A DNA stretch of 64,000 nucleotides. Source: a virus. Lineage: Duplodnaviria > Heunggongvirae > Uroviricota > Caudoviricetes. The notes beneath the pieces are model-generated. The model saw only the letters and a list, made by a program, of their open reading frames with translations. It ran no database searches and was not told where the DNA came from. The stretch lies in the IMG/VR virus record IMGVR_UViG_3300031951_000044. One strand, given 5' to 3'. Positions 2,733 through 52,277 of this stretch are shown piece by piece. Within the stretch, counting starts at the first letter, position 1. Each line of letters starts with the position of its first letter. The position numbers and the translations under genes were made by a program.

Positions 2733-2787
2733 AATTTTCTATACTTGCAAATTTATTCGGATGAACAAATTTTATCATTCGGTTTTG

Positions 2788-2861
2788 TGGTCCCAACAGG
2801 ATTTGAACCTGTAACCTACTGATTATGAGTCAGTTGCTCTAACCGATTGAGCTATGAGACC
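2788..2861 (-). tRNA. tRNA with CAT anticodon (elongator Met or, more likely given adjacent TilS, tRNA-Ile2 k2CAU)
   Basis: gene strand ggtctca-ta-gctc...actga/CTCATAA/tcagt...caggTTCAAATcctg...tgggacc-a; 7-bp acceptor, G1-C72 paired (not initiator), C4-G69, anticodon loop cuCAUaa, T-loop TTCAAAT. Confidence 0.8.
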
Positions 2862-2887: not shown

Positions 2888-3490
2888 TTACGTTTCTTGT
2901 CTATTCATTACCAACTTTTTAACAATTTTTCTGATACCGGGATTAATAATAAATACTTCCGGAATAATTTTATGTCTGATTCGATTACGTGCAAATCGAA
3001 TATCATCATTTGATTTATCATCCCAATATGGAACACTTTTATCGTTACACCAATTTTGAAACGCTACCTTTGACGTGGTTAAAAATGGTCGAATAACATT
3101 TTTATTACAATAGTTGATTACTTTTGGTTTTCCATGAATACAGGAAAAAATATAAGTTTCAACAACGTCATCAAGATGATGTGCGGTAATAACCGTCCCA
3201 TTAATCGAATGAAAAAACTCATAACGAATGTTTCTCCAATATTCCTCAAGAGATTCAGTTTTAAGACGATTTCTCTTAGATAATCCAAAAATTATCTTAA
3301 CATTATTATTTTCACAATATTTGCGAATCTTATCTTCTACAAATTGTGAATGTTCAGTTCCATGATTGAAGTAAAGAACGGTTACATCCTTTTTACCTCT
3401 AATTAAAAAATCAAGAACAGCCATAGAATCAACACCACCTGAGCAAGCAAGGTAAACATTGTGGGGAATACTACCCATGATTTTAATCAT
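2888..3490 (-). CDS. tilS: tRNA(Ile)-lysidine synthetase, catalytic N-terminal domain only (200 aa)
   Basis: PP-loop SGGVDS; AHHLDDVVETYIF; IRPFL; WDDKSNDDIRFARNRIRHKIIP all match TilS signature blocks. Confidence 0.75.
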   Translation of the reverse strand: MIKIMGSIPHNVYLACSGGVDSMAVLDFLIRGKKDVTVLYFNHGTEHSQFVEDKIRKYCENNNVKIIFGLSKRNRLKTESLEEYWRNIRYEFFHSINGTVITAHHLDDVVETYIFSCIHGKPKVINYCNKNVIRPFLTTSKVAFQNWCNDKSVPYWDDKSNDDIRFARNRIRHKIIPEVFIINPGIRKIVKKLVMNRQET

Positions 3491-4158: not shown

Positions 4159-4608
4159 TTAATTATACAACGGGTCACTTTTGGTTGTAACACCCTCCAA
4201 TTTGAAATGTTCTTCCACCGCAACAGCAGGGGCGGCGTGAGTTGCCTTTGTTGTAACACCCTCCAATTTGAAATGTTCTTCCACCATACCATTCAAGAAC
4301 ATCCTGATTTCCTGATAATTAAGGGCGAATTCCGATTCAAAAACTGACCAAACATTTGAATATGAGAACCAAAAATGGTTATTTTTCCAATCGTATTCGC
4401 AGACATAATTTCCATCTTTATCAAACCAAAACAAGAGATTTGGATATTTTTGGAAATCAACCTTCGGTTGATGAACATCAATTCCTGAAATCAATTCCAA
4501 GAATCGTTGTTCTTTGGTTTTAACATCTTTATTTCGTTGTTTATCAATCTGAGCAAGTTGTTCTTGCGTGAGTTCGATGACAATTCCGTTTTCAAGCGTT
4601 GCTTTCAT
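4159..4608 (-). CDS. hypothetical protein with C-terminal tandem repeat EEHFKLEGVTTK; shares 5' end with window-start gene
   Basis: 36-bp direct repeat gttgtaacaccctccaatttgaaatgttcttccacc at 4186 and 4250; 5' 126 bp duplicated at 1..126. Confidence 0.5.
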   Translation of the reverse strand: MKATLENGIVIELTQEQLAQIDKQRNKDVKTKEQRFLELISGIDVHQPKVDFQKYPNLLFWFDKDGNYVCEYDWKNNHFWFSYSNVWSVFESEFALNYQEIRMFLNGMVEEHFKLEGVTTKATHAAPAVAVEEHFKLEGVTTKSDPLYN

Positions 4609-4681
4609 TTGTTGTTTTGTTTAATACAAATATACACATAAATCTTTTATCTCCAACGAATGTTAATAACTATTTTTAGAC

Positions 4682-4874: not shown

Positions 4875-5195
4875 TTAAAGATTTTTGTTTGCGTAATCCT
4901 TACCTTTTTCAGTCAAGAAAAATACCTGCTCACCGTTTTCATCTTCGATGCTATCAATCATATTTTTATTCATCAATTGCTTCATTGTAGATTCAACAAT
5001 TGATAGTTGCATACCCTTAATAGCATCTTCCTCACTCATTACCAAATCATCACCACGTTTCCATCGCTCAAATACAACCTCACCGAATGCTTTGATTGCT
5101 GATTCCTTATCAACATCATTTTCAGTCAGAAATCCACTCTCATCAAGAGATTGGACAACCTGAGCAACAAATTCATTTACTGATTGTGGATACAT
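4875..5195 (-). CDS. hypothetical protein
   Basis: co-oriented ORF. Confidence 0.45.
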   Translation of the reverse strand: MYPQSVNEFVAQVVQSLDESGFLTENDVDKESAIKAFGEVVFERWKRGDDLVMSEEDAIKGMQLSIVESTMKQLMNKNMIDSIEDENGEQVFFLTEKGKDYANKNL

Positions 5196-5250
5196 TGGTT
5201 TTCTGTTTTTGGTTTGGTAAAGTTACAACAATAATTCGGAAGATGCAAAT

Positions 5251-5601
5251 TTATTTGAAGAGTTCGGGTGAACGTTTTTTCAATTCTTCAAGAAGTTTCG
5301 CATCATTTACTTTTTGTTGTACTTCTCGTTTTGCATTCATTTGCAAAACTTCATTGAGGTTTTTATCGAACGCTGGTACTTCTACATTATATGTGAATAC
5401 CACCTCATAACCATCCTCGTACTTCAAACGTTCTGTTGTGAAAAGAGCATCAGGATAGTTAGCGAGTACTCGCTGAACGTGTTTAAGATGTTCTTTAAGA
5501 GTTGTGGAGGTATCCACGCTTTCTTTTTGCTCACGATAGAACTTATCACCATCTTGGTAATATGAAGTATCACTATAAGAATGTGTTCCAATATATTTCA
5601 T
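5251..5601 (-). CDS. hypothetical protein
   Basis: co-oriented ORF; promoter motif at 5614-5632. Confidence 0.45.
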   Translation of the reverse strand: MKYIGTHSYSDTSYYQDGDKFYREQKESVDTSTTLKEHLKHVQRVLANYPDALFTTERLKYEDGYEVVFTYNVEVPAFDKNLNEVLQMNAKREVQQKVNDAKLLEELKKRSPELFK

Positions 5602-5661
5602 ATTCGTTTGGTTTAGTGATGCAAAGATAGATTATTTTTTTGGTATGTGCAACCACATTTG

Positions 5662-5692
5662 AAAAAAAAATGAGGTGACTGGCTACCACCTC
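5662..5692 (-). terminator. intrinsic terminator (minus strand)
   Basis: gene strand gaggtg-gtagccagt-cacctc followed by aTTTTTTTTTc. Confidence 0.6.
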
Positions 5693-5918
5693 TGTACCGT
5701 TTACCCGGTTGACGACCCACCCATCTCTTTTTATCCCACAACAGCGGATGGATGGTAGTTCCGTTGTGAGATCCGGGTCAAATCACGCTGGAGTCGAACC
5801 AGTTACGGTTGCGTCAACAACCGAAGCACCGCTGCATTTAAGTCACTTGTTCACTTTCGCTGTTGACGCAGTATACTGATGAACAGTTAACCGTGATTGA
5901 GATTGTAAAGTTACATCA
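5693..5918 (-). ncRNA. GC-rich structured RNA candidate with tRNA-like 3' module
   Basis: GC-rich island in 30% GC genome; T-arm-like ctggTTCGACTccag; 9-bp inverted repeat gcgtcaaca/tgttgacgc; aatcacg...cgtgatt pairing ~124 nt apart; no ORF. Confidence 0.3.
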
Positions 5919-6572
5919 TTAATCCGAGACTTGCAAATTTTTCTTATACTTATTTTTCAATATTCCATAAGATTTCGCCCATTTCCGTATTGCATTATCT
6001 GATACACCATATAATTCACCTATTTTCGTGTATGGTGTTGTTTCGATTAGCGTTTGTAATTCTTCTTTGGTTGGGCGATTTTTGACTTTACGTTTACCAT
6101 ATGTATTTTTAGGGTAAATCATTCTAAAATTTGGGTTAATATCACTCGGTTTACGATAGGTGATTGTAGTTCCGGTTGGGTATTTATAGTCTTCCCACCA
6201 AATTATATCCCTATCTTTGTAAAGAGGTAAAGTAGTTCTTACTGTCATATGTGTTAACCCAACATTGGGTATGTATGCGCACTCGTCTATATCAGGTAGA
6301 TAAATTGCATAATATTCAAAATCGTGAATCTCATATTTCTTTACTACCTCCCCGTTAGTTGTGCGAAAATTTTTCGTACAAAGAATCGCATTAACCTTAT
6401 CGTATTTAACTTGTAATCTAAACAATTTATTATTTGTCGTATCGTGACAAATTAAATCATATTGTAGATGTTCCGCGATTGGGATTGCAACTTGATACCC
6501 CTTTTTAGTTAAGTCTGCTATTACTTGTGTGACACCAATATCACCTTTGGTTTTTTCATTATTTAATCTCAT
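5919..6572 (-). CDS. putative free-standing homing endonuclease (PD-(D/E)XK-like N-domain + C-terminal HTH)
   Basis: YDLICHD...FRLQVKY (D...QxK) nuclease-like core; C-terminal ELYGVSDNAIRKWAKSYGI HTH typical of phage HEases; sits inside tRNA/ncRNA island. Confidence 0.4.
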   Translation of the reverse strand: MRLNNEKTKGDIGVTQVIADLTKKGYQVAIPIAEHLQYDLICHDTTNNKLFRLQVKYDKVNAILCTKNFRTTNGEVVKKYEIHDFEYYAIYLPDIDECAYIPNVGLTHMTVRTTLPLYKDRDIIWWEDYKYPTGTTITYRKPSDINPNFRMIYPKNTYGKRKVKNRPTKEELQTLIETTPYTKIGELYGVSDNAIRKWAKSYGILKNKYKKNLQVSD

Positions 6573-6637
6573 TATCGAATCTTTCCCTATAAATATAAGG
6601 AATAATTCAAAAGTTCGATTTAGGATGAAAAAGTTTC

Positions 6638-6710
6638 AGTACCCCCACCTAGAATCGAACTAGGAACCGAAAATTAGAAGTTTTCTATTATATCCATTTA
6701 ACTATGGGGG
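6638..6710 (-). tRNA. tRNA-Arg (anticodon TCT)
   Basis: gene strand gcccccA...gaaaa/CTTCTAA/ttttc...cctagTTCGATTctagg-tgggggt-a; anticodon stem 5 bp, T-arm canonical, acceptor 7 bp with G1-U72; D-arm not cleanly resolved by eye. Confidence 0.6.
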
Positions 6711-6732
6711 CAAAAGTCGAACCTAAAAATGT

Positions 6733-6830
6733 GCTCCCGGTCAGAATCGAACTGACAAGCCCGTTGGGGGCGACAGATTTTCTTACCACTTCGACTTTCG
6801 CCGCCCCAATATTGGGTTTGTGGTCTGGAC
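6733..6830 (-). ncRNA. tRNA-like element (canonical T-arm gtcagTTCGATTctgac) - cloverleaf not resolved manually
   Basis: perfect T-arm + GC-rich stem ggggcg/cgcccc; could be type-II tRNA, intron-containing tRNA or tRNA fragment. Confidence 0.3.
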
Positions 6831-7049
6831 TATACCATCGCCATAACTTTCGTTTTAGGCGTACCGTGTCTAGTCTCTGCACCTTCATGATTTTCATCAC
6901 GCTTGGCTCAGGATTGGCAGTTAAGCGTTCCCTGAATTTACGGTATTCTACATTCACCTTTTCAAGTGATGCACTCAAATTCTAACTACCTGAAAATGAG
7001 GTAGTTAAGTCTAAAGTCTGTTGTGTTTACCAATTTCACCACGGGAGCA

Positions 7050-7075
7050 TTAAGTCAAAGAACATCACAAAGATA
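7050..7075 (-). promoter_or_regulatory. promoter motif upstream of tRNA cluster (repeat copy 1)
   Basis: aagtcaaagaacatcacaaagatac (gene strand TAtcTTTGtgatgttctttg); identical 20-mer again at 7245-7264. Confidence 0.5.
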
Positions 7076-7244
7076 CAACATCCATTTCACATTTCCAAAT
7101 TAAATTGTTCCGGTGACTAAAAATATTAATGGTTAGGAATATTTGCGCCAAATAACAGCATAACGCTGTGTTCCTTTGCGTCAGAACATAAATCTTGGGA
7201 TTTGTAAGACCTAACGATACCCAAGCGTCACCGAAACAATCTAA

Positions 7245-7264
7245 TCAAAGAACATCACAAAGAT
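7245..7264 (-). promoter_or_regulatory. promoter motif (repeat copy 2) driving ~170-nt ORF-less transcript 7080-7240
   Basis: caaagaacatcacaaagata repeated. Confidence 0.4.
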
Positions 7265-7502
7265 AAGCATTATTTTCATATCTCCAACACTTACCTGAAA
7301 ATTTTCATATCTGTGGGTGTGCAAGTTCATGTGGTGGGATTACGGTTTACCCACATCGCTGGTCGCAGACCATGCAGTTGTCGCTTTACAATCACACATG
7401 AACATAGGTCGTTTACACAACCGAAGTTTCTCTTCTCCCGACCAAGGAGCGGTCTTGACCCACAGATATGATATTCAAAGAACTCTTTTACTTTTCGGTG
7501 GG

Positions 7503-7525
7503 GGTCGGTGACGTTTTCACCGACC
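7503..7525 (-). terminator. stem-loop downstream of AT-hook mini-gene 1
   Basis: ggtcggtg-acgtttt-caccgacc perfect 8-bp stem; weak U-tract. Confidence 0.35.
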
Positions 7526-7558
7526 CTCTCCACCTACTTAACCAAACCAACCAACCAA

Positions 7559-7717
7559 TTATCCTTGTGCTTCCTCAGCTTTCCTTGCTTCTCGCTCTGC
7601 TCGTTCGCGCAACTTTTGTTGACGCTTAGAGTCAGGTTTAACAGAACCTTTGGGACGACCGCGCTTGCGCTTTGCAGTTTCCACAGACGTTACCGGTGCT
7701 TCAAGAGTTGCTTCCAT
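7559..7717 (-). CDS. AT-hook mini-protein (52 aa), paralog 1
   Basis: manual ORF MEATLEAPVTSVETAKRKRGRPKGSVKPDSKRQQKLRERAEREARKAEEAQG; RGRP AT-hook; own TAacTTTG promoter at ~7745-7765. Confidence 0.4.
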   Translation of the reverse strand: MEATLEAPVTSVETAKRKRGRPKGSVKPDSKRQQKLRERAEREARKAEEAQG

Positions 7718-7857
7718 CGTTTTTCGTGTTTAAGGTTTGTGTTTCTGTTACCGATACAAAGTTAACTATTCTTATTCAATTTTGCAAGTCTTTTTTCTCT
7801 TTTTTTTCGGTGGGGGATCGGATGACCAATTTCACCCGACCCAAATACCCCACCTAC

Positions 7858-7996
7858 TTATGCTTCCACTTCAACAGTCTTATGTGCATCTCGCTCTGCT
7901 CGTTCGCGCAACTTTTGTTGACGCTTAGAGTTAGGGTTCACCGAACCTTTGGGACGACCGACTTTACGCTTCTCACTTACCACTACATTTTCCATG
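7858..7996 (-). CDS. AT-hook mini-protein (46 aa), paralog 2
   Basis: MENVVVSEKRKVGRPKGSVNPNSKRQQKLRERAERDAHKTVEVEA; tandem duplicate of 7559..7717. Confidence 0.4.
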
Positions 7997-8370: not shown

Positions 8371-9225
8371 TTATCCCTCCACAAGTTCGCTCAATTCCCT
8401 AAAAATTTGTCGCTCACGATTTCCATAGGTTCCGAACATCTTATTCTCCGTACTATCACCTTTACCCAAAGAGTGCGTTGTGTATCGTGTCACACCTGAG
8501 AACAAACCCCACAAGGTATTACCCTTTTCTTTCAATTCGCGGAGCAAGTCATGTTCAAAAGTTGTGATGCGATTTCTTGTGGTTGTCGATACCGCATCAA
8601 TATCCATAAGATTAACATTATCCTTAACGTTAAACAATGTCTTGGTGACAAAATCTCGTTCCTTCGCACCAAACTCTGTTTCAAACATTCGTTTGATGGT
8701 TTCAAACATTTTTGCTTCTTCCTTCATTGCAACCTCCATACCTTTGCATACATCATCAATTCGCAATTCCATATTCTTGGTATGCTTAATCTTATTCTCC
8801 AATGTTCTGAAGACCGAGAAAAATGTATTCTGACATGAAATGGTCAAATTGCTTGGTCCGAACGCAAGACTTGTGGATCCATCGAATGAATTAATTCCGG
8901 TGATGTATCCAACAACTTTGTCAGAACCGAGCGAAAGGTCATTCGATTTAAGTTGGATGAATACTTTTTTACCCTCACCAAATAGACCACCTGAATGAAT
9001 TGGTAGACCAACTTGTGCGGAAACCCTATCCAAGAGTTCAACGAGTTGGTAATTCTGATATGCTTGATAACCTTCACCATGCACAGACAATACCTCATTA
9101 TTATCCTCACGGATGAGTGCTTTGCGATCCGGAATCACGATTCCGCTTGCTGTTACCATGCTTTCTTCACGAACGGTCCAGTTAAGTCCGGTTTCGTTCA
9201 AAACTTGTTCAATTCGATTGTTCAT
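8371..9225 (-). CDS. hypothetical protein (possibly DUF932-like phage/plasmid family); start reassigned to internal Met
   Basis: ORF-track start at 9342 would overlap upstream gene and promoter; MNNRIEQVLNETG... at 9225 lies just below promoter motif 9246-9266. Confidence 0.45.
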   Translation of the reverse strand: MNNRIEQVLNETGLNWTVREESMVTASGIVIPDRKALIREDNNEVLSVHGEGYQAYQNYQLVELLDRVSAQVGLPIHSGGLFGEGKKVFIQLKSNDLSLGSDKVVGYITGINSFDGSTSLAFGPSNLTISCQNTFFSVFRTLENKIKHTKNMELRIDDVCKGMEVAMKEEAKMFETIKRMFETEFGAKERDFVTKTLFNVKDNVNLMDIDAVSTTTRNRITTFEHDLLRELKEKGNTLWGLFSGVTRYTTHSLGKGDSTENKMFGTYGNRERQIFRELSELVEG

Positions 9226-9245
9226 GTTTGTTCTGTGTTTTAGAG

Positions 9246-9266
9246 TTTGACGATGCAAATATACAT
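9246..9266 (-). promoter_or_regulatory. phage promoter motif
   Basis: tttgacgatgcaaatatacat. Confidence 0.55.
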
Positions 9267-10081
9267 CAATTTTGTGATTCGCGCAACTTTTTAATCTCCG
9301 AGTTATCAACAATTTTGAAATCTTGTCGCGCAATTTTCTCAATCAAATCATCAAGATTAAATCGCATTGCTTCATCTTGTCGCCAACCATTCTTATAGAA
9401 TGTCGCATGAACGGTTTTCTTGTTAACTTTATGAATAAAGATATGTTCCGTTACCGTTCCACCTTTGTATTTGAACTCAATGGTAACACCATCTGCAATA
9501 GCTGACATAACCTTATTTCGTTGCTCTTCACGAACCCTTTGTTGAGTTTCTCGTACCAATTTATCCATCGGAGCGGAAATACTATACACTTTATTGTTCA
9601 TTTCATGGTAGACATGATATGCGCGAACAATCTGACTCTGAACTTCATCCATACGCTTTGCAATTTCCGCACAAAGCATCAAGTGAACAAAATCTTCAAC
9701 ATCAAATTTTGTGGATGAAAAACGCATACTTGACATCGACATTTCAATACCTTCAATTTCCACCTTATTATTAACATAATCGCGATTCTCTTTAACATAA
9801 ATGTTCAAATCACGACCCCAGTTTTTGCTATCCTTTTCTGTGATTCGCAACGTAGTAGAGTAACCGCCAAAATTCACATTAAGTCCAATGGTATCAGGTA
9901 CATCAACAAGACCTTTGAAGTAATATTCAAGATTACTATTGAGGTTCTTGATACCTACTTCATTCTCAGCATATACACTCTGAAGTTTCTCAAAAAGAAG
10001 GTCGTAAACCATCTTATCGGAATCGGTCATGTGTTCGTATGTTTTGCTCTTTTCCATTGTTGTTTTGGTTTGACGATGCAA
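9266..10081 (-). CDS. hypothetical protein (271 aa)
   Basis: co-oriented ORF; promoter motif 10069-10090. Confidence 0.5.
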   Translation of the reverse strand: MHRQTKTTMEKSKTYEHMTDSDKMVYDLLFEKLQSVYAENEVGIKNLNSNLEYYFKGLVDVPDTIGLNVNFGGYSTTLRITEKDSKNWGRDLNIYVKENRDYVNNKVEIEGIEMSMSSMRFSSTKFDVEDFVHLMLCAEIAKRMDEVQSQIVRAYHVYHEMNNKVYSISAPMDKLVRETQQRVREEQRNKVMSAIADGVTIEFKYKGGTVTEHIFIHKVNKKTVHATFYKNGWRQDEAMRFNLDDLIEKIARQDFKIVDNSEIKKLRESQN

Positions 10082-20208: not shown

Positions 20209-20403
20209 TTATTTTTTATAACCCATTTCTACTGCTGTATCATAAGAAACATTATGTGCTGTTACACAATGTACTAAGATACCAAACACATAATAAAAAA
20301 CAGTAACATCTGTTTTTTGAACACTTACTTCGCCAATTTTACCCCATCCCCAAGGACCAACAACTACTTTTTTACCAAACAATGAATTTCTTCGATTGTT
20401 CAT
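20209..20403 (-). CDS. hypothetical protein
   Basis: co-oriented ORF. Confidence 0.4.
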   Translation of the reverse strand: MNNRRNSLFGKKVVVGPWGWGKIGEVSVQKTDVTVFYYVFGILVHCVTAHNVSYDTAVEMGYKK

Positions 20404-21380
20404 TTTTTAGAATCATAAGATTTGTTAATAACTTTAAAAGAACCATTTTCATGATTAATTACAACACCCTCAAAAGGTTTACCTTCAATTTTATCAATAC
20501 CAACCGAATATTTTTGAATCAACTCATTAGTTAATTCGACATCCAATTCAATGATATCAACGAATGGTAATTCCAATTCTTGCGCAACATTTCTAAAATA
20601 GAATCTATCGTTCTTTCTATGATATTTACGTTCTTTAATGTTATATACAGAAAACATTACCCACCCTTTTGGTTTTTGAGAATGTGGATTGTTTCCAGAA
20701 CTTTGAATCCCTTGACCAAACGACTCACCACGAATGCACAAAGAAACATTATGTTTTTTGCAATAGTCAATAAGCTTATTTTTAATGTTGTAACGAGCAA
20801 CATGTGCGGTATAGTTATTTACCGCATCCAACTTCATTTCCAAGTTTCTTCCAAGAACACCAAATTCATCAGTTTCAATGTTATAATAGAAACTACAACT
20901 TTGTCCATCAACTTTAGATGTAACATCAACAATTGAACCGAATGGAAGTTCATCAATGATATTCTCAAATCGAATTTCATCAGTGGGACCAATTCCAACC
21001 GGAAGATAACCTTTTGCTTGAAGATCTTGTGGTTGTGGTGCTTCATAATGAACAACACCAATTTGTTCACTCACATCAGAGCCAACTTGAAGATTTGATA
21101 AATCAACTGGAAGTTGTTCAAACCTAACAATAATACCTTCACTAAATTCGCCACGAAGTTTTACAGCTTTGATTCGTTTTGGTGAATATTTTCGATACTC
21201 TTCAGTCCAAGGTTCAATAGGAAGAACCGCATCAGGTCGAATATAAACAATTTTCTCACCACCCTTATAAAGTCCTTTTTGTGTAACGCATTGAAACCCA
21301 AGAATCTTAACAAGATCAAGTCTATCTGCATCAGGATGAGCTTTGACTTCAGAAATAATTTCAATCGTTGCGTCTTTCAT
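20400..21380 (-). CDS. putative RNA ligase with N-terminal tRNA-binding (Myf/EMAP-like OB) domain
   Basis: N-term HPDADRL...VLPIEP...KLRGEFSEGII = tRNA-binding OB fold; nucleotidyltransferase motif I TSKVDGQSCSFY (KxDG). Confidence 0.55.
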   Translation of the reverse strand: MKDATIEIISEVKAHPDADRLDLVKILGFQCVTQKGLYKGGEKIVYIRPDAVLPIEPWTEEYRKYSPKRIKAVKLRGEFSEGIIVRFEQLPVDLSNLQVGSDVSEQIGVVHYEAPQPQDLQAKGYLPVGIGPTDEIRFENIIDELPFGSIVDVTSKVDGQSCSFYYNIETDEFGVLGRNLEMKLDAVNNYTAHVARYNIKNKLIDYCKKHNVSLCIRGESFGQGIQSSGNNPHSQKPKGWVMFSVYNIKERKYHRKNDRFYFRNVAQELELPFVDIIELDVELTNELIQKYSVGIDKIEGKPFEGVVINHENGSFKVINKSYDSKK

Positions 21381-23341: not shown

Positions 23342-24142
23342 TCAAACTGGCAAATTAATTTTGTTCAAAATTTGATTTGAAACGTGTGTGTATATTTCTG
23401 TGGTTTTAACATTTGAATGACCAAGAATTTTTTGAATAATTCTTAAATCTGTTCCATTTTCTAATAAGGATGTTGCAAAACTGTGTCTAAGTGTGTGTAT
23501 ATGTCCATCAGATTCAATATATTTTTTGTATATTTTCTGACAACTACCTATTGAATATTTAGTACTGTTTTGTCCATTGAAGAGATATTCCTTTGGGATA
23601 TAATTTTTATAATAAGTTCTTAATAGTCTTAATACATTTTGAGATAATGGAACAACTCTATCTTTTCTTCCTTTTGCGTTCTTAATGTGGATTAACATTC
23701 GCTTGGAATCAATATCCTCTATTTTAAGATTAATTATTTCTGAGACTCGTAGACCAACTGAAAAAGTTAAGGTGAGAATTGCTTTGTGTTTGAGATTATC
23801 AATCTTATTTAATTTATCAATGATTGAATTTGAATCAATTACTTTTGGTAGTTTCTTCTCAGATTTAGGTCTTTTAAACGATATTTTATCATATTTTTTA
23901 TTAAGACCAAATTTGTAGAGAAATCTTATTGCGTTAATGATTTGGTTTTGTTGTGCTGTTGAAGTGAATTTATAATTATCTAAATAGGATTGAAAATCTT
24001 GAGCATTACAATGTATTACTTGTTTACTACCAATGTGATTTAAGAAATTTTTTATATGTGAAAGATAATTATCTTTTGTTCTTGGTGAATAGTTTAAATA
24101 TATAAACTTTTCTTCACAAATCTTAATAATTTTATTATTCAA
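23342..24142 (-). CDS. tyrosine site-specific recombinase (Xer/IntI-like, 266 aa)
   Basis: GLRVSE (box I Arg); HTLRHSFATSLLENGTDLRIIQKILGHSNVKTTEIYTHV (H-x-x-R, catalytic Tyr); apparent TTG start. Confidence 0.8.
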   Translation of the reverse strand: MNNKIIKICEEKFIYLNYSPRTKDNYLSHIKNFLNHIGSKQVIHCNAQDFQSYLDNYKFTSTAQQNQIINAIRFLYKFGLNKKYDKISFKRPKSEKKLPKVIDSNSIIDKLNKIDNLKHKAILTLTFSVGLRVSEIINLKIEDIDSKRMLIHIKNAKGRKDRVVPLSQNVLRLLRTYYKNYIPKEYLFNGQNSTKYSIGSCQKIYKKYIESDGHIHTLRHSFATSLLENGTDLRIIQKILGHSNVKTTEIYTHVSNQILNKINLPV

Positions 24143-30670: not shown

Positions 30671-32674
30671 CTACATCTCGTTTCCAAATATAGTCCCTAC
30701 ATGTAAATCTTTTTCTTTTCTTTTTTCTTCCCACGCTTTTTTTATTTCCATAGAAAGAAATGGTAAAATCGAAAAAAGTAGTTTATTTAAGTGTTTTAAA
30801 ACATAGTAAAACTCTGTTTCATATTTAATTCTCATATTGGAATTTGTGTCAGATTCATAAAATTCATTTTTAATATCCTCCGTCAACAAAGATGAATAAT
30901 AGTTTATAAATTCAACAAAACCCCTTACTGCTTTATTCAAATCAAATTCATTGACAAGTAAATCAAATTTATTTTCCAACTCTTTTACTTTAAAAAAAAT
31001 ATTTTCATCAACTTTTGTTTCATCATAATCATATATATATAGATTATTAAATAAATAACGGAGAAAGTTTCTTATTTTAAAATATTGTTTACCAGAGTTT
31101 TTTAATGAATCTTCCGAAAAGACAATATCGTTTTTAAAATCTGACAGTAAAACCCATAGTCTTAATACATCAGGGTTATATGTTTCATACAGCTTTTCCA
31201 AACTTCCGCCATTACCTTTTGATTTTGATAGTTTTTCTAATGTGTTATCAACAATAAATCCGTGTGTTATTATTCTTTTTGTTGGTACTCGACCAATCAT
31301 TGATGCTAATATAATCGAACTTTGAAACCACCCTCTGTGTTGGTCTGAACCTTCAATGTATATATCGGCAGGTTTATCATACATCATAAATGTAGAACCA
31401 CTATCAAACCAAACATCCAATATATCATTACTATTAGGTATTTTAACACCCCATTTTCTTTGTCTTGAAATACACCAATCTTTGCGTGAAAATATTGTCG
31501 TTGATAAACGATTTCTGTCTTTTGATGATAACTTTATTTCTTTTAAACAAGTCTTTATTTTGTTTAAATCAAAATCAAGATACGTTTGTTCCGTTAATAC
31601 TTTATACACCTTATTCCCTTCACGCCAATCAATTGGATAATCGTGTGTGTAAATTTCACGTTTATATACAAACTTTTCATCAATTTTAAAATCTTCTATG
31701 TGTTTTAATAAGCCGATTTTATCGCACACATTTTTGGGGGTTATGTTATTATCCATTAAAATTCGATAATCTTCATCACCGTGTCCACCGCAAAGATGTA
31801 CTATACCTGTTTTATCATCTGAAACGTAGTCATCATAAATAATTGGACATAAATCTCCATTGTGGTTATGATATGACTTAATATTACTCACATCAAACAA
31901 ATCATAATCTAAATTATTTTCAATAGCAAAACTTTCACTACAAATAATATTGTCAACAGTTTTAACATATTTTATATTATTACTTAAACATACTGCCTGA
32001 TTTCCGTTTACAGTCCATTCTGTTGTTGTCCAAACAAGTAATTTAAAACTATCAGAGTTGAATAGAAAATACAAAGATTCATCTTCTATTTTTTTATATT
32101 CAATTTCTGAGTTAGCCAATACTGTTTTTAATGTTGGTGAGTACCAAGTAGGCTTATTCTTTTTAAGAATTAGACCCGCATTTAGTAGTTGGTGGTATAT
32201 ATATAATTCTCTTTCTATAAAATCAATATCCATAGTTTTAAACCTACCTTCAGTTGGATAAATCCCGAAAAGTTCAAGAGTTTTATTTTGAATATCACAA
32301 TATTTGGTTGCGACTAATTTAGCATTTTGAATTAAATCACCACTCATTTCTTTTGCTTTATTTTCAATGGGTAAACCATGACAGTCCCAACCAAATGAAA
32401 CCCTAACTTTCTTACCTTTTGTTAAGTAATATTTTACAACAAAATCTTTCAAGGTTTTGTTTAAAAAATGTCCCAAATGTAATTCTCCATTGGCGTATGG
32501 TTCACCATCTTGTATAATGTATTCATCATTTGAATTTTCATACAAGTTGTTCACATAATCTTTGATAGAAGCGTTCAATAAAGTAAGTTTATCTCTATCT
32601 AACTTCTGTGTAATTTCTTCTTTTGGTAATAATACTTTATTCATTATTTTAAATTTTATTTTCCCACCACACAA
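30671..32674 (-). CDS. ileS: minimalist isoleucyl-tRNA synthetase-like class I aaRS (667 aa)
   Basis: PYANGELHLGH (HIGH), GWDCHGLPIE, WTTTEWT, DWCISRQRKWGV, DVWFDSGST, EGSDQHRGWF, KLSKSKGN (KMSKS) - IleRS signature blocks; CP1 and C-terminal regions much shorter than bacterial IleRS. Confidence 0.7.
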   Translation of the reverse strand: MCGGKIKFKIMNKVLLPKEEITQKLDRDKLTLLNASIKDYVNNLYENSNDEYIIQDGEPYANGELHLGHFLNKTLKDFVVKYYLTKGKKVRVSFGWDCHGLPIENKAKEMSGDLIQNAKLVATKYCDIQNKTLELFGIYPTEGRFKTMDIDFIERELYIYHQLLNAGLILKKNKPTWYSPTLKTVLANSEIEYKKIEDESLYFLFNSDSFKLLVWTTTEWTVNGNQAVCLSNNIKYVKTVDNIICSESFAIENNLDYDLFDVSNIKSYHNHNGDLCPIIYDDYVSDDKTGIVHLCGGHGDEDYRILMDNNITPKNVCDKIGLLKHIEDFKIDEKFVYKREIYTHDYPIDWREGNKVYKVLTEQTYLDFDLNKIKTCLKEIKLSSKDRNRLSTTIFSRKDWCISRQRKWGVKIPNSNDILDVWFDSGSTFMMYDKPADIYIEGSDQHRGWFQSSIILASMIGRVPTKRIITHGFIVDNTLEKLSKSKGNGGSLEKLYETYNPDVLRLWVLLSDFKNDIVFSEDSLKNSGKQYFKIRNFLRYLFNNLYIYDYDETKVDENIFFKVKELENKFDLLVNEFDLNKAVRGFVEFINYYSSLLTEDIKNEFYESDTNSNMRIKYETEFYYVLKHLNKLLFSILPFLSMEIKKAWEEKRKEKDLHVGTIFGNEM

Positions 32675-39539: not shown

Positions 39540-40613
39540 TTAATCTTCTTTATTCCAATAAGGTTTTTGATATTTTGGTCTTACCAAATCCCAAATTAGT
39601 GGTTTATAATTTCTATTATCCAACATCGAATACAATATTTTTTGATATCTTGGAATCACATTCGATTGTATCCATAATGCTTTATCTTTTCTATTTTCAA
39701 GTTGTTGATTATTGAGTTCATCTTTTTTTGTATTGCAGACTGATAAAATGTAATCAAAAGACTTGTTCAAGTCAAATATCTTACCTCTAACCCACTTATC
39801 AAATTCATCTGGAACTTTATTCAAGAACGCATAAATATCATCTTCGTTTTTCAAACATTCCCAAATATCAACGTTTGAAAAATTGGTTATTAATTTATGC
39901 AAACGAACATATTCATCAAATTTAATTTTGATTCGATAGTTAGATGGTTCAAATTTAATAATATAACCCTCTCTATTTTCTTCAAAAGAATTCTTTAATG
40001 ATTTATAATCAAATACATTTCCATATTCTTTAACAATATGTGAATTGGGTATTTGACAACGATTAAATTCTTCTTTGCACTGAGACCAAGAAAGTTCCTT
40101 ATCTTTATGATAGATGGATAAGAAAAATAGTTTTTCCTCATTATAAACCACAACAATCGTGTTTTCAACATAAATTATTTCAACTAGATATGTGTATTCC
40201 GGATTTAACAAATCAACACGATACAAATTATGTAATATTTCCTCAGCTTTTTGCGCTTGTTCAGACATAAAAGAACCTCTGGTTGCTACATTCCACTTAT
40301 TATCATAATAATAAATAATTCCAAGTGATCCATCACATTTATCTTGCACAATCGGATTTTCTTTTACAATAATATTAAACGCGGAGTGATTTTGTGGTAA
40401 TTCTTCATAATTAAAAAACTTTGAGAATCCTCTAGCAATTAAATTACCGTTCTCATCAAGAATGAGACCACGACAATTAAGCGTAATATCGTCCCACTTA
40501 TTATCAAACTGAGTTTTTCTTGAGTAATTATAAATAAAAAGATTTTTGGTTGGGTGTTTTGTTTCTTCTACCCAACCATCAATAACATATTGCTTTATTT
40601 TATTATGATTCAC
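39540..40613 (-). CDS. RNA ligase, T4 Rnl1-like
   Basis: motif I KCDGSLGIIYY (T4 Rnl1 KEDGSL); 357 aa. Confidence 0.6.
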   Translation of the reverse strand: MNHNKIKQYVIDGWVEETKHPTKNLFIYNYSRKTQFDNKWDDITLNCRGLILDENGNLIARGFSKFFNYEELPQNHSAFNIIVKENPIVQDKCDGSLGIIYYYDNKWNVATRGSFMSEQAQKAEEILHNLYRVDLLNPEYTYLVEIIYVENTIVVVYNEEKLFFLSIYHKDKELSWSQCKEEFNRCQIPNSHIVKEYGNVFDYKSLKNSFEENREGYIIKFEPSNYRIKIKFDEYVRLHKLITNFSNVDIWECLKNEDDIYAFLNKVPDEFDKWVRGKIFDLNKSFDYILSVCNTKKDELNNQQLENRKDKALWIQSNVIPRYQKILYSMLDNRNYKPLIWDLVRPKYQKPYWNKED

Positions 40614-51350: not shown

Positions 51351-52277
51351 TTACTTTTTAAATCTAACGACTTTCTTTATCAATAAGTCACCTAGATGTC
51401 CACTTCCTCTAAAACCCTTACCCTTAACTCTTAGAGGAATTGACGTGTCGAATGTTTCCGGTAGCGTAATCGTTAGATTACCGCTTGGGTGAGGTATTTC
51501 TATCTTATCCAGATTTAACTCGTCTAATGTAAAGATTTTAGTATAAACAAGATCATTATCTATACGTTCAAAATTATTTTGAGGTTCAATATTAACTTTA
51601 ATTATTAAATCTCCATACATACTATTTTTAAAATCTCCTTTACCTTGAACTCTGTATAGTGACCCGTTTTGAACACCAATTGGTAAATTCATATTAAGAT
51701 TATCTGTCTGTGTTTTAAATCCATTACCTGAACAACTAAAGCAGGGATTAACAATGGTAGATCCATTACCGGAGCAAGTATCACATATTGTTTGGATTGT
51801 TTGTGAAAAAAATCCGTTTCCAGTTCTTTTTAGTTTGGTACCGGAACCGGAACAATCTGAACATTTTTTTCGTTCTCCACCATTTCCATTACAAGAATTA
51901 CATGCAATATTTCTTAAATATGTAATTGGTTTATTTATCCCCAAAAAAGAATCAACAACACCGATAGAAACAGTAATAATTTTCTCAGGTGCAGAAGGTC
52001 TTCTGGTTCTATTTTGATTAAATAGATGATTTAATAAATCGTTAATATCTCCAGCACCACTAGAAAAACCAAATGGATTTTTCCTTTGATTATCATACAC
52101 GTTTCTTTTTTCTGAATCGGATAAATTCTCATACGCCTCACTAATTTCTTTAAATTTATCAGCACCATTTGGATTTACATCTGGATGATATTGTTTACTC
52201 ATTTTACGATAAGATTTTTTTATCTCGTCAACTGATGCTGTTTCTGGTACTCCTAAAATTTGATAATAATCTTTCAT
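51351..52277 (-). CDS. dnaJ: DnaJ-like chaperone (J domain + CxxCxGxG zinc finger)
   Basis: YYQILGV...YHPDVNP (HPD); CNSCNGNG...CSDCSGSG...CDTCSGNG...CFSCSGNG. Confidence 0.75.
   Translation of the reverse strand: MKDYYQILGVPETASVDEIKKSYRKMSKQYHPDVNPNGADKFKEISEAYENLSDSEKRNVYDNQRKNPFGFSSGAGDINDLLNHLFNQNRTRRPSAPEKIITVSIGVVDSFLGINKPITYLRNIACNSCNGNGGERKKCSDCSGSGTKLKRTGNGFFSQTIQTICDTCSGNGSTIVNPCFSCSGNGFKTQTDNLNMNLPIGVQNGSLYRVQGKGDFKNSMYGDLIIKVNIEPQNNFERIDNDLVYTKIFTLDELNLDKIEIPHPSGNLTITLPETFDTSIPLRVKGKGFRGSGHLGDLLIKKVVRFKK

Follow-up and report, generated by a model that had tools for sequence, protein, structure and literature searches.

A probable stable-RNA gene cluster with a split tRNA-Leu(UAA), a tRNA-Arg-associated homing endonuclease and an apparently undescribed small RNA family in an uncultivated freshwater phage

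General features of the RNA island

A stretch of 64,000 nucleotides (nt) of Caudoviricetes DNA (IMG/VR record IMGVR_UViG_3300031951_000044), hereafter the window, contains an island of predicted noncoding RNA genes that is read from position 7560 to position 5660. The whole is best explained, with fairly high confidence, as a minus-strand cluster of stable-RNA genes that belongs to an uncultivated freshwater phage and is served by Bacteroidota-looking promoters. The transcription order is quite probably as follows: a structured RNA (RNA A), promoter copy 2, a second structured RNA (RNA B), promoter copy 1, a tRNA-Leu(UAA) gene with a group I intron, tRNA-Arg(UCU), a homing endonuclease gene, a tRNA-like element, and a small RNA (sRNA) with its terminator. 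Four points are new here: a clear lineage of trnL-type group I introns in phages, two contigs that lack exactly this intron, the location of the endonuclease family next to tRNA-Arg, and an uncatalogued family of sRNAs.

An earlier note on this DNA, made from the letters alone, had proposed a noncoding RNA island at this place, and this is borne out by the tRNAs, the intron, the structured sRNA and the single open reading frame (ORF) with family support described below. The minus strand carries every gene between 4000 and 10000, as well as all the features that the note had pointed out, which were recovered at the positions given in it or 1-2 nt away. The GC content is 0.44-0.49 across 5600-5900 versus about 0.31-0.37 in the flanks; the GC-rich segment with T-arm-like sequence and acceptor-like pairing noticed earlier is indeed present, and its 3' part is the structured sRNA. 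The phage is considered uncultivated, since 25 kb of its DNA had no megablast match among 50,697 phage records.

ARAGORN with default settings and Rfam at gathering thresholds returned two tRNAs only in the whole window. With such defaults, the scans that the earlier note had suggested as a check say nothing about the rest of the island; the intron emerges below the gathering score or when introns are allowed in ARAGORN. The same note would have given up the island if the scans returned only one tRNA and no structured families, a rule that would have wrongly discarded a real finding because the intron is sub-threshold and the sRNA family is absent from Rfam.

The split tRNA-Leu(UAA) gene and its group I intron

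The tRNA-Leu(UAA) gene (6732..7048, minus strand) consists of exon 1 (7048-7014) and exon 2 (6781-6732), lacks an encoded CCA, and is interrupted by an ORF-less group I intron of 232 nt (6782..7013, minus strand). In the joined exons ARAGORN recognizes a tRNA-Leu(taa) of 86 nt with a standard class II cloverleaf and a long variable arm, and in the genomic sequence, with introns allowed, it gives tRNA-Leu with an intron of ~230 nt. The second T-arm of the region, GTCAGTTCGATTCTGAC at about 6756-6740, is part of the 3' exon. The earlier note could not fold the element to which this arm belongs and listed an intron-containing tRNA among several explanations; this one proved right, the element being tRNA-Leu(UAA) split at the classical trnL insertion site.

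The intron interrupts the anticodon between U34 and A35, in the context CUU/u...g/AAAA with U-1 and omega-G: exon 1 ends with ...ACAGACUU (7014), the intron ends with ...GGUAAG (6782), and exon 2 starts with AAAAUCUGU. The context CUU/...g/AAAA is the classical "Leu.3Ug" site of cyanobacterial trnL introns, described as CUU/a...g/AAAA (doi 10.1101/2020.01.27.920355). At a relaxed threshold, the Rfam model Intron_gpI was aligned over its full length with 6805-6993 of the minus strand (42 bits, E=9.6e-9); hits of at least 18-20 bits have been accepted when nested in a split tRNA (Williams, 2020; doi 10.1101/2020.01.27.920355).

Homologous introns occupy the same site of tRNA-Leu(UAA) genes in the uncultured phages LR756501 (735 kb) and LR756511 (595 kb). 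Two more tRNA-Leu(UAA) genes have homologous introns at this site, one of 964 nt, with an ORF showing weak HNH signals, in the IMG/VR phage L120/L112, and one of 236 nt, 76.6% identical, in the metagenome contig L173. In the RNAalifold consensus, built from four phage introns only, compensatory changes are seen in 25 of the 48 pairs, which is the kind of covariation in relatives that had been proposed as a check; the terminator hairpin of the sRNA provides another example (see below). By sequence and consensus fold, the intron is assigned to a lineage of phage tRNA-Leu introns. It would be expected to self-splice, yielding a functional tRNA-Leu.

Intron-less contigs

The exact borders of the intron are seen in environmental contigs of the same phage. 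Among the 14 contigs, L004 and L009 join 7014 straight to 6781, and as precisely those 232 nt are absent from them, the predicted borders are biologically real. Apart from the length of one T run (T8/T9), the RNA island carries no substitutions in the 14 contigs, and hence this strain variation offers no covariation.

What these two contigs represent is a separate matter. We lean, if only moderately, towards assembled spliced RNA rather than DNA alleles, because of their common start in different samples and because the T8/T9 variant is uncoupled from the intron. Both contigs, from separate samples, begin at base 7135, a start that no other contig has and that fits a defined RNA 5' end, and the T8/T9 variant at 5670 groups L004 with L005 and L009 with the window, regardless of intron presence. 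Consequently, four haplotypes are needed if the contigs are DNA, whereas two strains, each seen in spliced and unspliced form, suffice if they are RNA. A presence/absence polymorphism of intron-less DNA alleles, reflecting recent gain or loss of the intron, is a somewhat less probable account. L004 and L009 are ordinary JGI assembly records; L004 is a distinct strain, with 23 mismatches in 4470-4300 and different downstream genes; and the related introns hold endonuclease-like ORFs and are therefore potentially mobile. Position 7135 itself falls in the single-stranded A/U-rich 3' part of RNA B, where an RNA processing site or a branch point of the assembly graph is possible.

The tRNA-Arg gene and the homing endonuclease

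Downstream of tRNA-Leu lies an uninterrupted tRNA-Arg(UCU) gene (6639..6711, minus strand), detected by ARAGORN and with 59.7 bits by Rfam, in agreement with the tRNA-Arg(TCT) of the earlier note. An ORF for a protein of 217 amino acids (aa) starts 66 nt past it (5919..6572, minus strand) and is the sole ORF in the island with family support. Its previously suspected homing-endonuclease character is confirmed by a match to Pfam PF11645 (PDDEXK_5) at residues 5-114, where it reaches 73.7 bits, the cut-off being 26.1 (E=2e-20). Among solved structures there is one relative, 2OST, with which the motifs YDL (LQYDLI in the query) and QVK (LQVKY in the query) are aligned; we take these positions to be the catalytic D ... 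(E/Q)xK of PF11645 proteins. The C-terminal part has a match in PHROG, to a family labelled HNH endonuclease, and the last ~50 residues form a helix-turn-helix-like module with 60-78% identity to many phage endonuclease-like proteins. The ORF is thus predicted to encode a free-standing PD-(D/E)XK homing endonuclease of the I-Ssp6803I family.

The gene sits between tRNA-Arg and the tRNA-like element, outside any intron. Among those endonuclease relatives whose DNA could be retrieved, homologues are found 54-79 nt downstream of tRNA-Arg in nine loci (L015-L020 and L172-L174), the tRNA being UCU in L016-L020, CCU in L015, and an intron-split UCU in L172-L174. Given these distances, the family appears to have a fixed address beside tRNA-Arg and not beside the tRNA-Leu intron. 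The suggestion of the earlier note that the adjacent endonuclease reflects a mobile-intron history is accordingly not supported: the enzyme is neither intron-encoded nor linked to the tRNA-Leu intron. In L172-L174 the tRNA-Arg(UCU) gene (L173 482-782; L174 159-459; L172 1-70) has its own group I intron after U34 (CUU/...g/CUAA), ~224 nt long and without an ORF, and lies directly before the PD-(D/E)XK gene; the label tRNA-Leu given to this gene by ARAGORN is wrong.

By analogy with SegB of phage T4 and with I-Ssp6803I, the endonuclease may cut DNA of the tRNA-Arg region and drag its flanks along during repair. In a mixed infection its target would be the tRNA-Arg region of any phage lacking the gene; through recombinational repair of the break, the rival would acquire the endonuclease gene together with the flanking intron, tRNAs and sRNA, in the manner of SegB and the T4 tRNA region.

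A "tRNA-Ala with a 686-nt intron" called by ARAGORN across the endonuclease gene was rejected, its 5' half being inside the ORF and its pairing poor. Other mobile elements were seen in tRNA clusters of the compared loci. L015 has two copies of the endonuclease gene, and an IS605 TnpA/TnpB pair (5064-6553) lies beside the second PDDEXK_5 copy within a tRNA cluster, while the tRNA cluster of L120 includes a gene for a zinc-finger and DUF559/MTES_1575 endonuclease (8404-9333).

The conserved pseudoknotted sRNA

The 3' part of the GC-rich segment encodes a conserved phage sRNA of ~117 nt (5662..5779, minus strand), recognized by a 19-mer, covariance model R1, covariation, a pseudoknot and a terminator. 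Its elements, all on the minus strand, are hairpin S1 (5772-5761 with 5744-5733), the pseudoknot (5755-5746 with 5727-5717), the invariant UCAACCGGGUAAACGGUAC (5712-5694) containing a GNRA hairpin (5709-5696), and a terminator hairpin of 8 pairs (5692-5672) followed by T9 (U9 in the RNA, 5670-5662). The last two features make up the intrinsic terminator that had already been read at 5662..5692.

The 19-mer TCAACCGGGTAAACGGTAC was found in 17 other loci, six from IMG/VR and 11 from metagenomes (Tara Oceans and lake samples included), and allowing one degenerate position added seven further viral members; the family is represented in more than 20 marine and freshwater phage contigs. All members share YCG, UCA, and a 4-bp hairpin ACCG/CGGU with the loop G-GNAA-A, where N is found as all four bases, as in a GNRA tetraloop. 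These are followed by AC, a hairpin with fixed top pairs (G-C, G-U, U-G) and the loop A-R-Y-C-A, in which the lower five pairs covary, and a U-rich tail. The definition underlying model R1, a helix ending just before YCG together with the invariant UCAACCGGGNAAACGGUAC, describes the window sequence in every feature.

In the terminator hairpin 95.6% of cells are paired, and double-change cells number 37 versus 12 expected, a value not reached in any of 500 shuffles. Over ~40 nt the sRNA is 90% identical to L173, and three pairs of the terminator stem show compensatory changes between the two. Model R1, built from 19 family members, scores the members at 45-77 bits, the window at 72.3 bits (E=1e-18, at 5664-5725), and chance 17-mer matches, including 100 bacterial and archaeal loci, at 31 bits or less. 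The 17-mer was matched at least 120 times in bacterial genomes (chance expectation about 280); among the matches listed, none qualifies for the family, either on hairpin criteria or under the covariance model, where the top score is 31 bits.

Immediately 5' of YCG is a segment that in every case is paired with one further upstream. In six members (the window, L192, L195, L200, L180 and L197) this upstream partner lies in a hairpin loop, forming an H-type pseudoknot, and the arms are of unrelated sequence: CCAUCCAUC/GAUGGGUGG, UUCUUUCU/AGAAAGA, GUCGUUUG/CAAACGAC, and AUUUCAUC/GAUGAAAU. In a marine subgroup the 5' domain is larger, bringing the RNA to about 210 nt, and contains additional hairpins that covary. 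Several members are located inside tRNA clusters, some of them 3-4 nt from a tRNA, and L187 (175-270) has two tandem copies of the 3' module, each with the 19-mer and the hairpin. No Rfam family matches any member, and BLAST of two members against the phage collection found none in deposited phage genomes. The sRNA is therefore a member of a conserved and covarying structured-RNA family of phages that is apparently new.

Since phages that differ in promoter type all have the core unchanged, we favour an RNA that would act in trans, binding a widely conserved partner. It would act through its invariant 3' module, and the partner would be common to very different phage-host pairs. Alternatively, the module (19-mer, hairpin and U-run) could be a cis element, either a terminator or 3'-end stabiliser, or a DNA flank or target of the endonuclease cassette, conserved by hitch-hiking or by DNA recognition. 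The module always ends in a terminator-like hairpin, and in the window and L173 it directly follows the endonuclease gene and is ~90% identical, though the proteins are 53% identical. At the other ~20 loci, however, neither an endonuclease nor any other shared protein is adjacent. The stem covaries while the loop and the 19-mer are fixed, which is an RNA-level pattern, and the upstream helices and the pseudoknot are kept by differing sequences. Moreover, in L195 and L200 a tRNA lies 3-4 nt past the hairpin, which has a short U-run only, and L187 carries two modules in tandem. A cis element is thus improbable, and action in trans remains the preferred reading.

As to the mode of such action, the family may be a new functional RNA class with demanding biochemistry, produced by phage tRNA clusters; it might be a small ribozyme, or else might sequester, as decoy or sponge, either a universally conserved host factor or a defence that targets tRNAs. 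We regard this as unlikely. The combination of a hairpin-loop pseudoknot, an invariant linker and a GNRA hairpin seems to us to recall small self-cleaving ribozymes, e.g., pistol, and is mentioned as a lead only. Likeness of the invariant core to rRNA, SRP RNA or CRISPR repeats was considered and set aside. The adjacent tRNA-like element could be a processing handle of the sRNA or a second decoy.

Predicted promoters and transcription

Two of the RNA genes are preceded by an exact 21-mer repeat, TATCTTTGTGATGTTCTTTGA, at 7055-7075 and 7245-7265, for which chance predicts 0.01 copies even with three mismatches. It had been described as a promoter element of 20 nt; the exact repetition and promoter-like character hold, whereas the element is really one base longer and its coordinates were one base short. 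The 21-mer is composed of a -7 box, TATCTTTG, and a conserved leader motif, GTTCTTTGA. We assume a Bacteroidota promoter consensus of TTTG at -33 and TAnnTTTG at -7, which TATCTTTG fits. Copy 1 (7055..7099, minus strand) has both boxes, TTTG at 7099-7096 and TATCTTTG at 7075-7068, separated by a 20-nt spacer (~19-21 nt being expected), and its leader ends 6 nt before tRNA-Leu. In copy 2 (7245..7265, minus strand) TATCTTTG is followed by the leader TGATGTTCTTTGA, and GTTG stands in place of TTTG.

A third copy of the leader motif GTTCTTTGA (7475..7483, minus strand) lies 3 nt upstream of the closing helix of RNA A and 6 nt before the core UAUCUGUGGG. Exact matches to GTTCTTTGA are confined to the minus strand (7055-7063, 7245-7253 and 7475-7483), and within about 6 nt of each a structured RNA starts: tRNA-Leu, RNA B and RNA A. 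Elsewhere the motif is found ahead of tRNA-Leu (LR756501, L173) and of sRNA genes (L183, L200), and the leader upstream of tRNA-Leu, CTTTGACTTAAT, is conserved in L173 and nearly so in L120. The motif GTTCTTTGA may either belong to the region of the start site or signal processing.

An exact copy of the 17-mer TTTGTGATGTTCTTTGA is found upstream of tRNA-Asp in L120, in the same promoter layout; the 17-mer promoter scan of IMG/VR otherwise gave mostly chance matches, L093, L112 and L120 alone being relevant. Within the window, the pair of TTTG and downstream TAnnTTTG is seen again ahead of tRNA(CAT) and, at about 2690, ahead of the next ORF. The number of TAnnTTTG matches in the window, 140 versus 115 expected, is a modest enrichment.

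Transcription would start at the duplicated TTTG-N20-TATCTTTG promoters. On the gene strand, no TAnnTTTG occurs between 7068 and 5629, and for this reason the endonuclease mRNA probably derives from the tRNA operon transcript. RNase P and RNase Z would cut at the tRNAs, possibly also at the tRNA-like element, and would thereby free the sRNA and the endonuclease mRNA, whose release by tRNA cutting is proposed because the gene lacks a consensus promoter of its own. A candidate internal promoter, TTTG-N20-TAACTTTA (5906..5937, minus strand), was read from the sequence inside the end of the endonuclease ORF; TAACTTTA agrees with the -7 consensus in 7 of 8 positions. Transcripts from it would begin close to the tRNA-like element, and it could drive this element and the sRNA separately.

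The tRNA-like element

The 5' part of the GC-rich segment (5781..5898, minus strand) is tRNA-like, an assignment made with low confidence from its predicted fold. It has an acceptor-like helix, a possible T arm, and a long arm of 9-12 bp in place of the anticodon arm. The acceptor-like pairing of 7 bp joins AAUCACG (5898-5892) with CGUGAUU (5787-5781), and the T-arm-like CTGGTTCGACTCCAG at 5802-5788 reads CUGG-UUCGACU-CCAG. The minimum free energy (MFE) fold, with z=-2.7, contains the acceptor helix and the long central arm.

The earlier note considered that the elements it could not explain might be permuted tRNAs or tRNA-fragment decoys, and named transfer-messenger RNA (tmRNA) among its checks; such decoys would act against tRNA-targeting host defences. 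The segment 5898-5781 does combine an acceptor-like helix with a canonical T-loop sequence while having no anticodon loop; the phage invests in tRNA biology, encoding two RNA ligases, TilS and an IleRS-like enzyme; and in L180 there is likewise an oversized tRNA-like call (~150 nt) ahead of the sRNA. Yet ARAGORN found no tmRNA in the window, permuted forms included, and, at its default threshold with introns allowed, no tRNA or tmRNA at this element; the tRNA and tmRNA models of Rfam had no match at 5660-5920 with E<=10; and the element with the "perfect T-arm" is fully accounted for by an ordinary split tRNA-Leu. Taken together, these alternatives are unlikely, the tRNA-like element being the one that may yet be a decoy. 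Calls made by ARAGORN at a low threshold were rejected as noise.

Oversized tRNA-like genes of 94-152 nt accompany the sRNA in three other loci, lying 251 to 101 nt upstream of it in L180 and 47 nt past the sRNA motif in L195 and L200. They have the acceptor AGUCAGG... and a canonical T arm, and could be explained as class II tRNAs that carry insertions or, as reported for Lak phages, short introns of no assigned class.

Orphan RNAs A and B

RNA A (7305..7471, minus strand) is a multi-stem RNA of ~167 nt with a closing helix of ~14 bp. Its MFE is -66.1 kcal/mol versus -43.3 kcal/mol for shuffled sequences (z=-5.45), and none of 200 shuffles was as good. RNA B (7098..7246, minus strand; ~150 nt), which contains no ORF, has a closing helix of 20 bp, three internal hairpins and a possible GUUAGG/CCUAAC pseudoknot; its MFE is -48.0 kcal/mol versus -29.8 kcal/mol (z=-5.17, again 0/200). 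Exact-word scans for the two RNAs gave chance matches only. As modelled, both remain orphan candidates.

RNA A, RNA B and the tRNA-like element could be non-functional, either decaying remnants of old tRNAs, introns or endonuclease footprints, or spacer with incidental structure. Clusters of tRNA genes with many homing endonucleases are hot spots for recombination, relatives of RNA A or RNA B were found in no search, and in L173 an ORF lies immediately before the tRNA-Leu promoter and the tRNA-like element is absent. Nevertheless, z-scores of -5.2 to -5.5 with closing helices of 14-20 bp are far from random, each of the two RNAs starts soon after the conserved GTTCTTTGA motif, and their sequences are identical in at least 10 independent assemblies, though all of one phage species. 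On balance, decay or incidental structure is a rather unlikely account, and RNA A and RNA B are retained as candidate genes of the cluster.

Other features of the window

The upstream boundary of the island is marked by a long hairpin GGUGG...CCACC (7497..7534, minus strand), recognized from its sequence and fold, which follows a small basic ORF (7559-7717, minus strand). A similar hairpin, 78.8% similar to it, is found at about 7795-7850. The ORFs 7559-7717 and 7858-7995, both on the minus strand, are tandem paralogues of 52 and 45 aa, small and basic, with the AT-hook-like motif RGRPKGS/VGRPKGS, and each is followed by a long GGUGG...CCACC hairpin with an A-run, not a U-run, on the coding strand.

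Neighbouring genes did not lead to further relatives of the island. The 116-aa ORF downstream of the island has no relatives in IMG/VR, and its distant homologues have no RNA upstream; the 22 loci related through the DUF932 protein share that gene alone, with no tRNAs and no RNA homologues.

Several genes elsewhere in the window concern tRNA metabolism. A tRNA(CAT) gene (2787-2861, minus strand) lies 26 nt downstream of a gene for a TilS N-domain protein (2888-3490, minus strand; TIGR02432, 126 bits vs 93.6), and a short IleRS-like synthetase of 667 aa is encoded at 30671-32674 (minus strand; TIGR00392, E=7e-115, under the equivalog cut-off). The three could make up a phage-borne module for AUA decoding, consisting of tRNA-Ile2, lysidine synthase and IleRS. 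Two RNA ligases, one of the DRB0094 type and one T4 RnlA-like, are encoded at 20400-21380 and 39540-40613, a tyrosine integrase at 23342-24142, and a full-length DnaJ at 51351-52277, all on the minus strand; the ligases would suit a phage that repairs or defends tRNAs. Finally, positions 1-127 are identical to 4484-4610, which is either a k=127 assembly artefact or a genuine repeat, and ORF 4159-4608 has an internal repeat of ~40 nt.

Overall interpretation

Several observations weigh against the interpretation of the whole island as a stable-RNA gene cluster with a tRNA-Arg-linked endonuclease. The Intron_gpI match, at 42.0 bits, is below the Rfam gathering score of 50; RNA A and RNA B have no homologues in any search and hence no covariation support; the T arm of the tRNA-like element is missing from its MFE fold, and the whole element from the closest relative, L173. 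L004 and L009 could be intron-less DNA alleles. The second endonuclease copy of L015 (948-1604) has no upstream tRNA, being the one exception to the fixed address, and neither a protein consistently beside the sRNA family nor a target was found. Promoters, processing sites and splicing are all predictions from sequence.

These points notwithstanding, the island bears on several wider questions. Default tRNA and Rfam annotation overlooks intron-split phage tRNAs, so that a tRNA-Leu(UAA), even if functional, would be left out of the count; introns of this lineage are present across several phage groups, huge phages of 595-735 kb among them. The fixed address past tRNA-Arg(UCU) gives a directly testable target for the endonuclease and suggests how clusters of tRNAs and sRNAs may spread among phages, as with SegB in T4. 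The sRNA family spans phages from marine and freshwater samples, whose hosts probably belong to different phyla. So conserved an element probably contacts something fundamental, and its partner could reveal a new phage-host interaction.

Comparison with known systems

The cyanobacterial and plastid-type tRNA-Leu(UAA) intron (IC3) is like the intron of the window in its gene, its insertion point between U34 and A35, U-1 and omega-G. The core CAAUCCUGAGCCAAG is kept in the window, and both introns are ~230 nt long with no ORF. The window intron differs in being phage-borne, in belonging to a lineage common to huge and other uncultivated phages, and in falling under the Rfam gathering score (42 vs 50). 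For large phages, it has been remarked that tRNA introns may be common, and they were left unclassified (Lak/huge phages, doi 10.1101/356790); in contrast to the Lak phage introns so described, the window intron is clearly group I.

The endonuclease shares PF11645, the YDL/QVK motifs and the association with tRNA genes with I-Ssp6803I (2OST), the enzyme of the Synechocystis tRNA-fMet intron. I-Ssp6803I, however, is intron-encoded, has 151 aa and is linked to tRNA-fMet, whereas the window protein is free-standing, has 217 aa with an extra C-terminal module, and is linked to tRNA-Arg. Stand-alone PDDEXK_5 genes have been reported in Jug phages and, with group I introns, are abundant in Bacteroides jumbo phages.

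A free-standing endonuclease encoded beside an intron-containing gene is the setting of collaborative homing, one case of which is F-CphI and the psbA intron of cyanophages. Another is collaborative or trans homing by T4 mobE/I-TevIII (PMC2790892). L172-L174 resemble this arrangement, as the endonuclease gene lies just downstream of the split tRNA-Arg(UCU), a layout expected if the intron shields the carrier genome from its own endonuclease. The window is unlike them in that its tRNA-Arg is intact and the sole intron resides in the neighbouring tRNA-Leu.

The structured RNAs were compared with known noncoding RNAs as well. GOLLD and ROOL RNAs (PMC5737381) are large or unusual phage RNAs that likewise cluster with tRNA genes; the sRNA has no sequence or model similarity to them and is far smaller (110-210 nt). 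Part of RNA A (7402-7326) matches the Rfam model of skipping-rope RNA (RF02924; Weinberg et al., 2017, PMC5737381) with 26.2 bits (E=0.003), short of the gathering score, 36.7. It shares an 8-bp outer stem around hairpins and several conserved positions (GAUG, GGG...CCC, CCA). Unlike skipping-rope RNA, the module is poor in the first hairpin, is followed by no terminator after 7326, and is nested in a larger five-way structure; this is a resemblance only and not membership.

The closest parallel for the island as a whole is the tRNA region of phage T4, in which intron-free tRNA genes are accompanied by the small stable RNAs species 1 and 2. The T4 region also contains the gene of the homing endonuclease SegB (PMC2330249; see also PMC13096335). 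Both regions combine a tRNA cluster, a free-standing homing endonuclease gene and extra stable RNAs without known function, although SegB is a GIY-YIG enzyme and the window enzyme PD-(D/E)XK, the T4 tRNA genes have no introns, and no sequence similarity to the T4 region was found in the phage collection. The predicted outcome is alike, the whole region being preferentially inherited. Most of the island can be explained as a variant of the T4-like "tRNA region", to which the phage of the window adds an sRNA family that is apparently undescribed.

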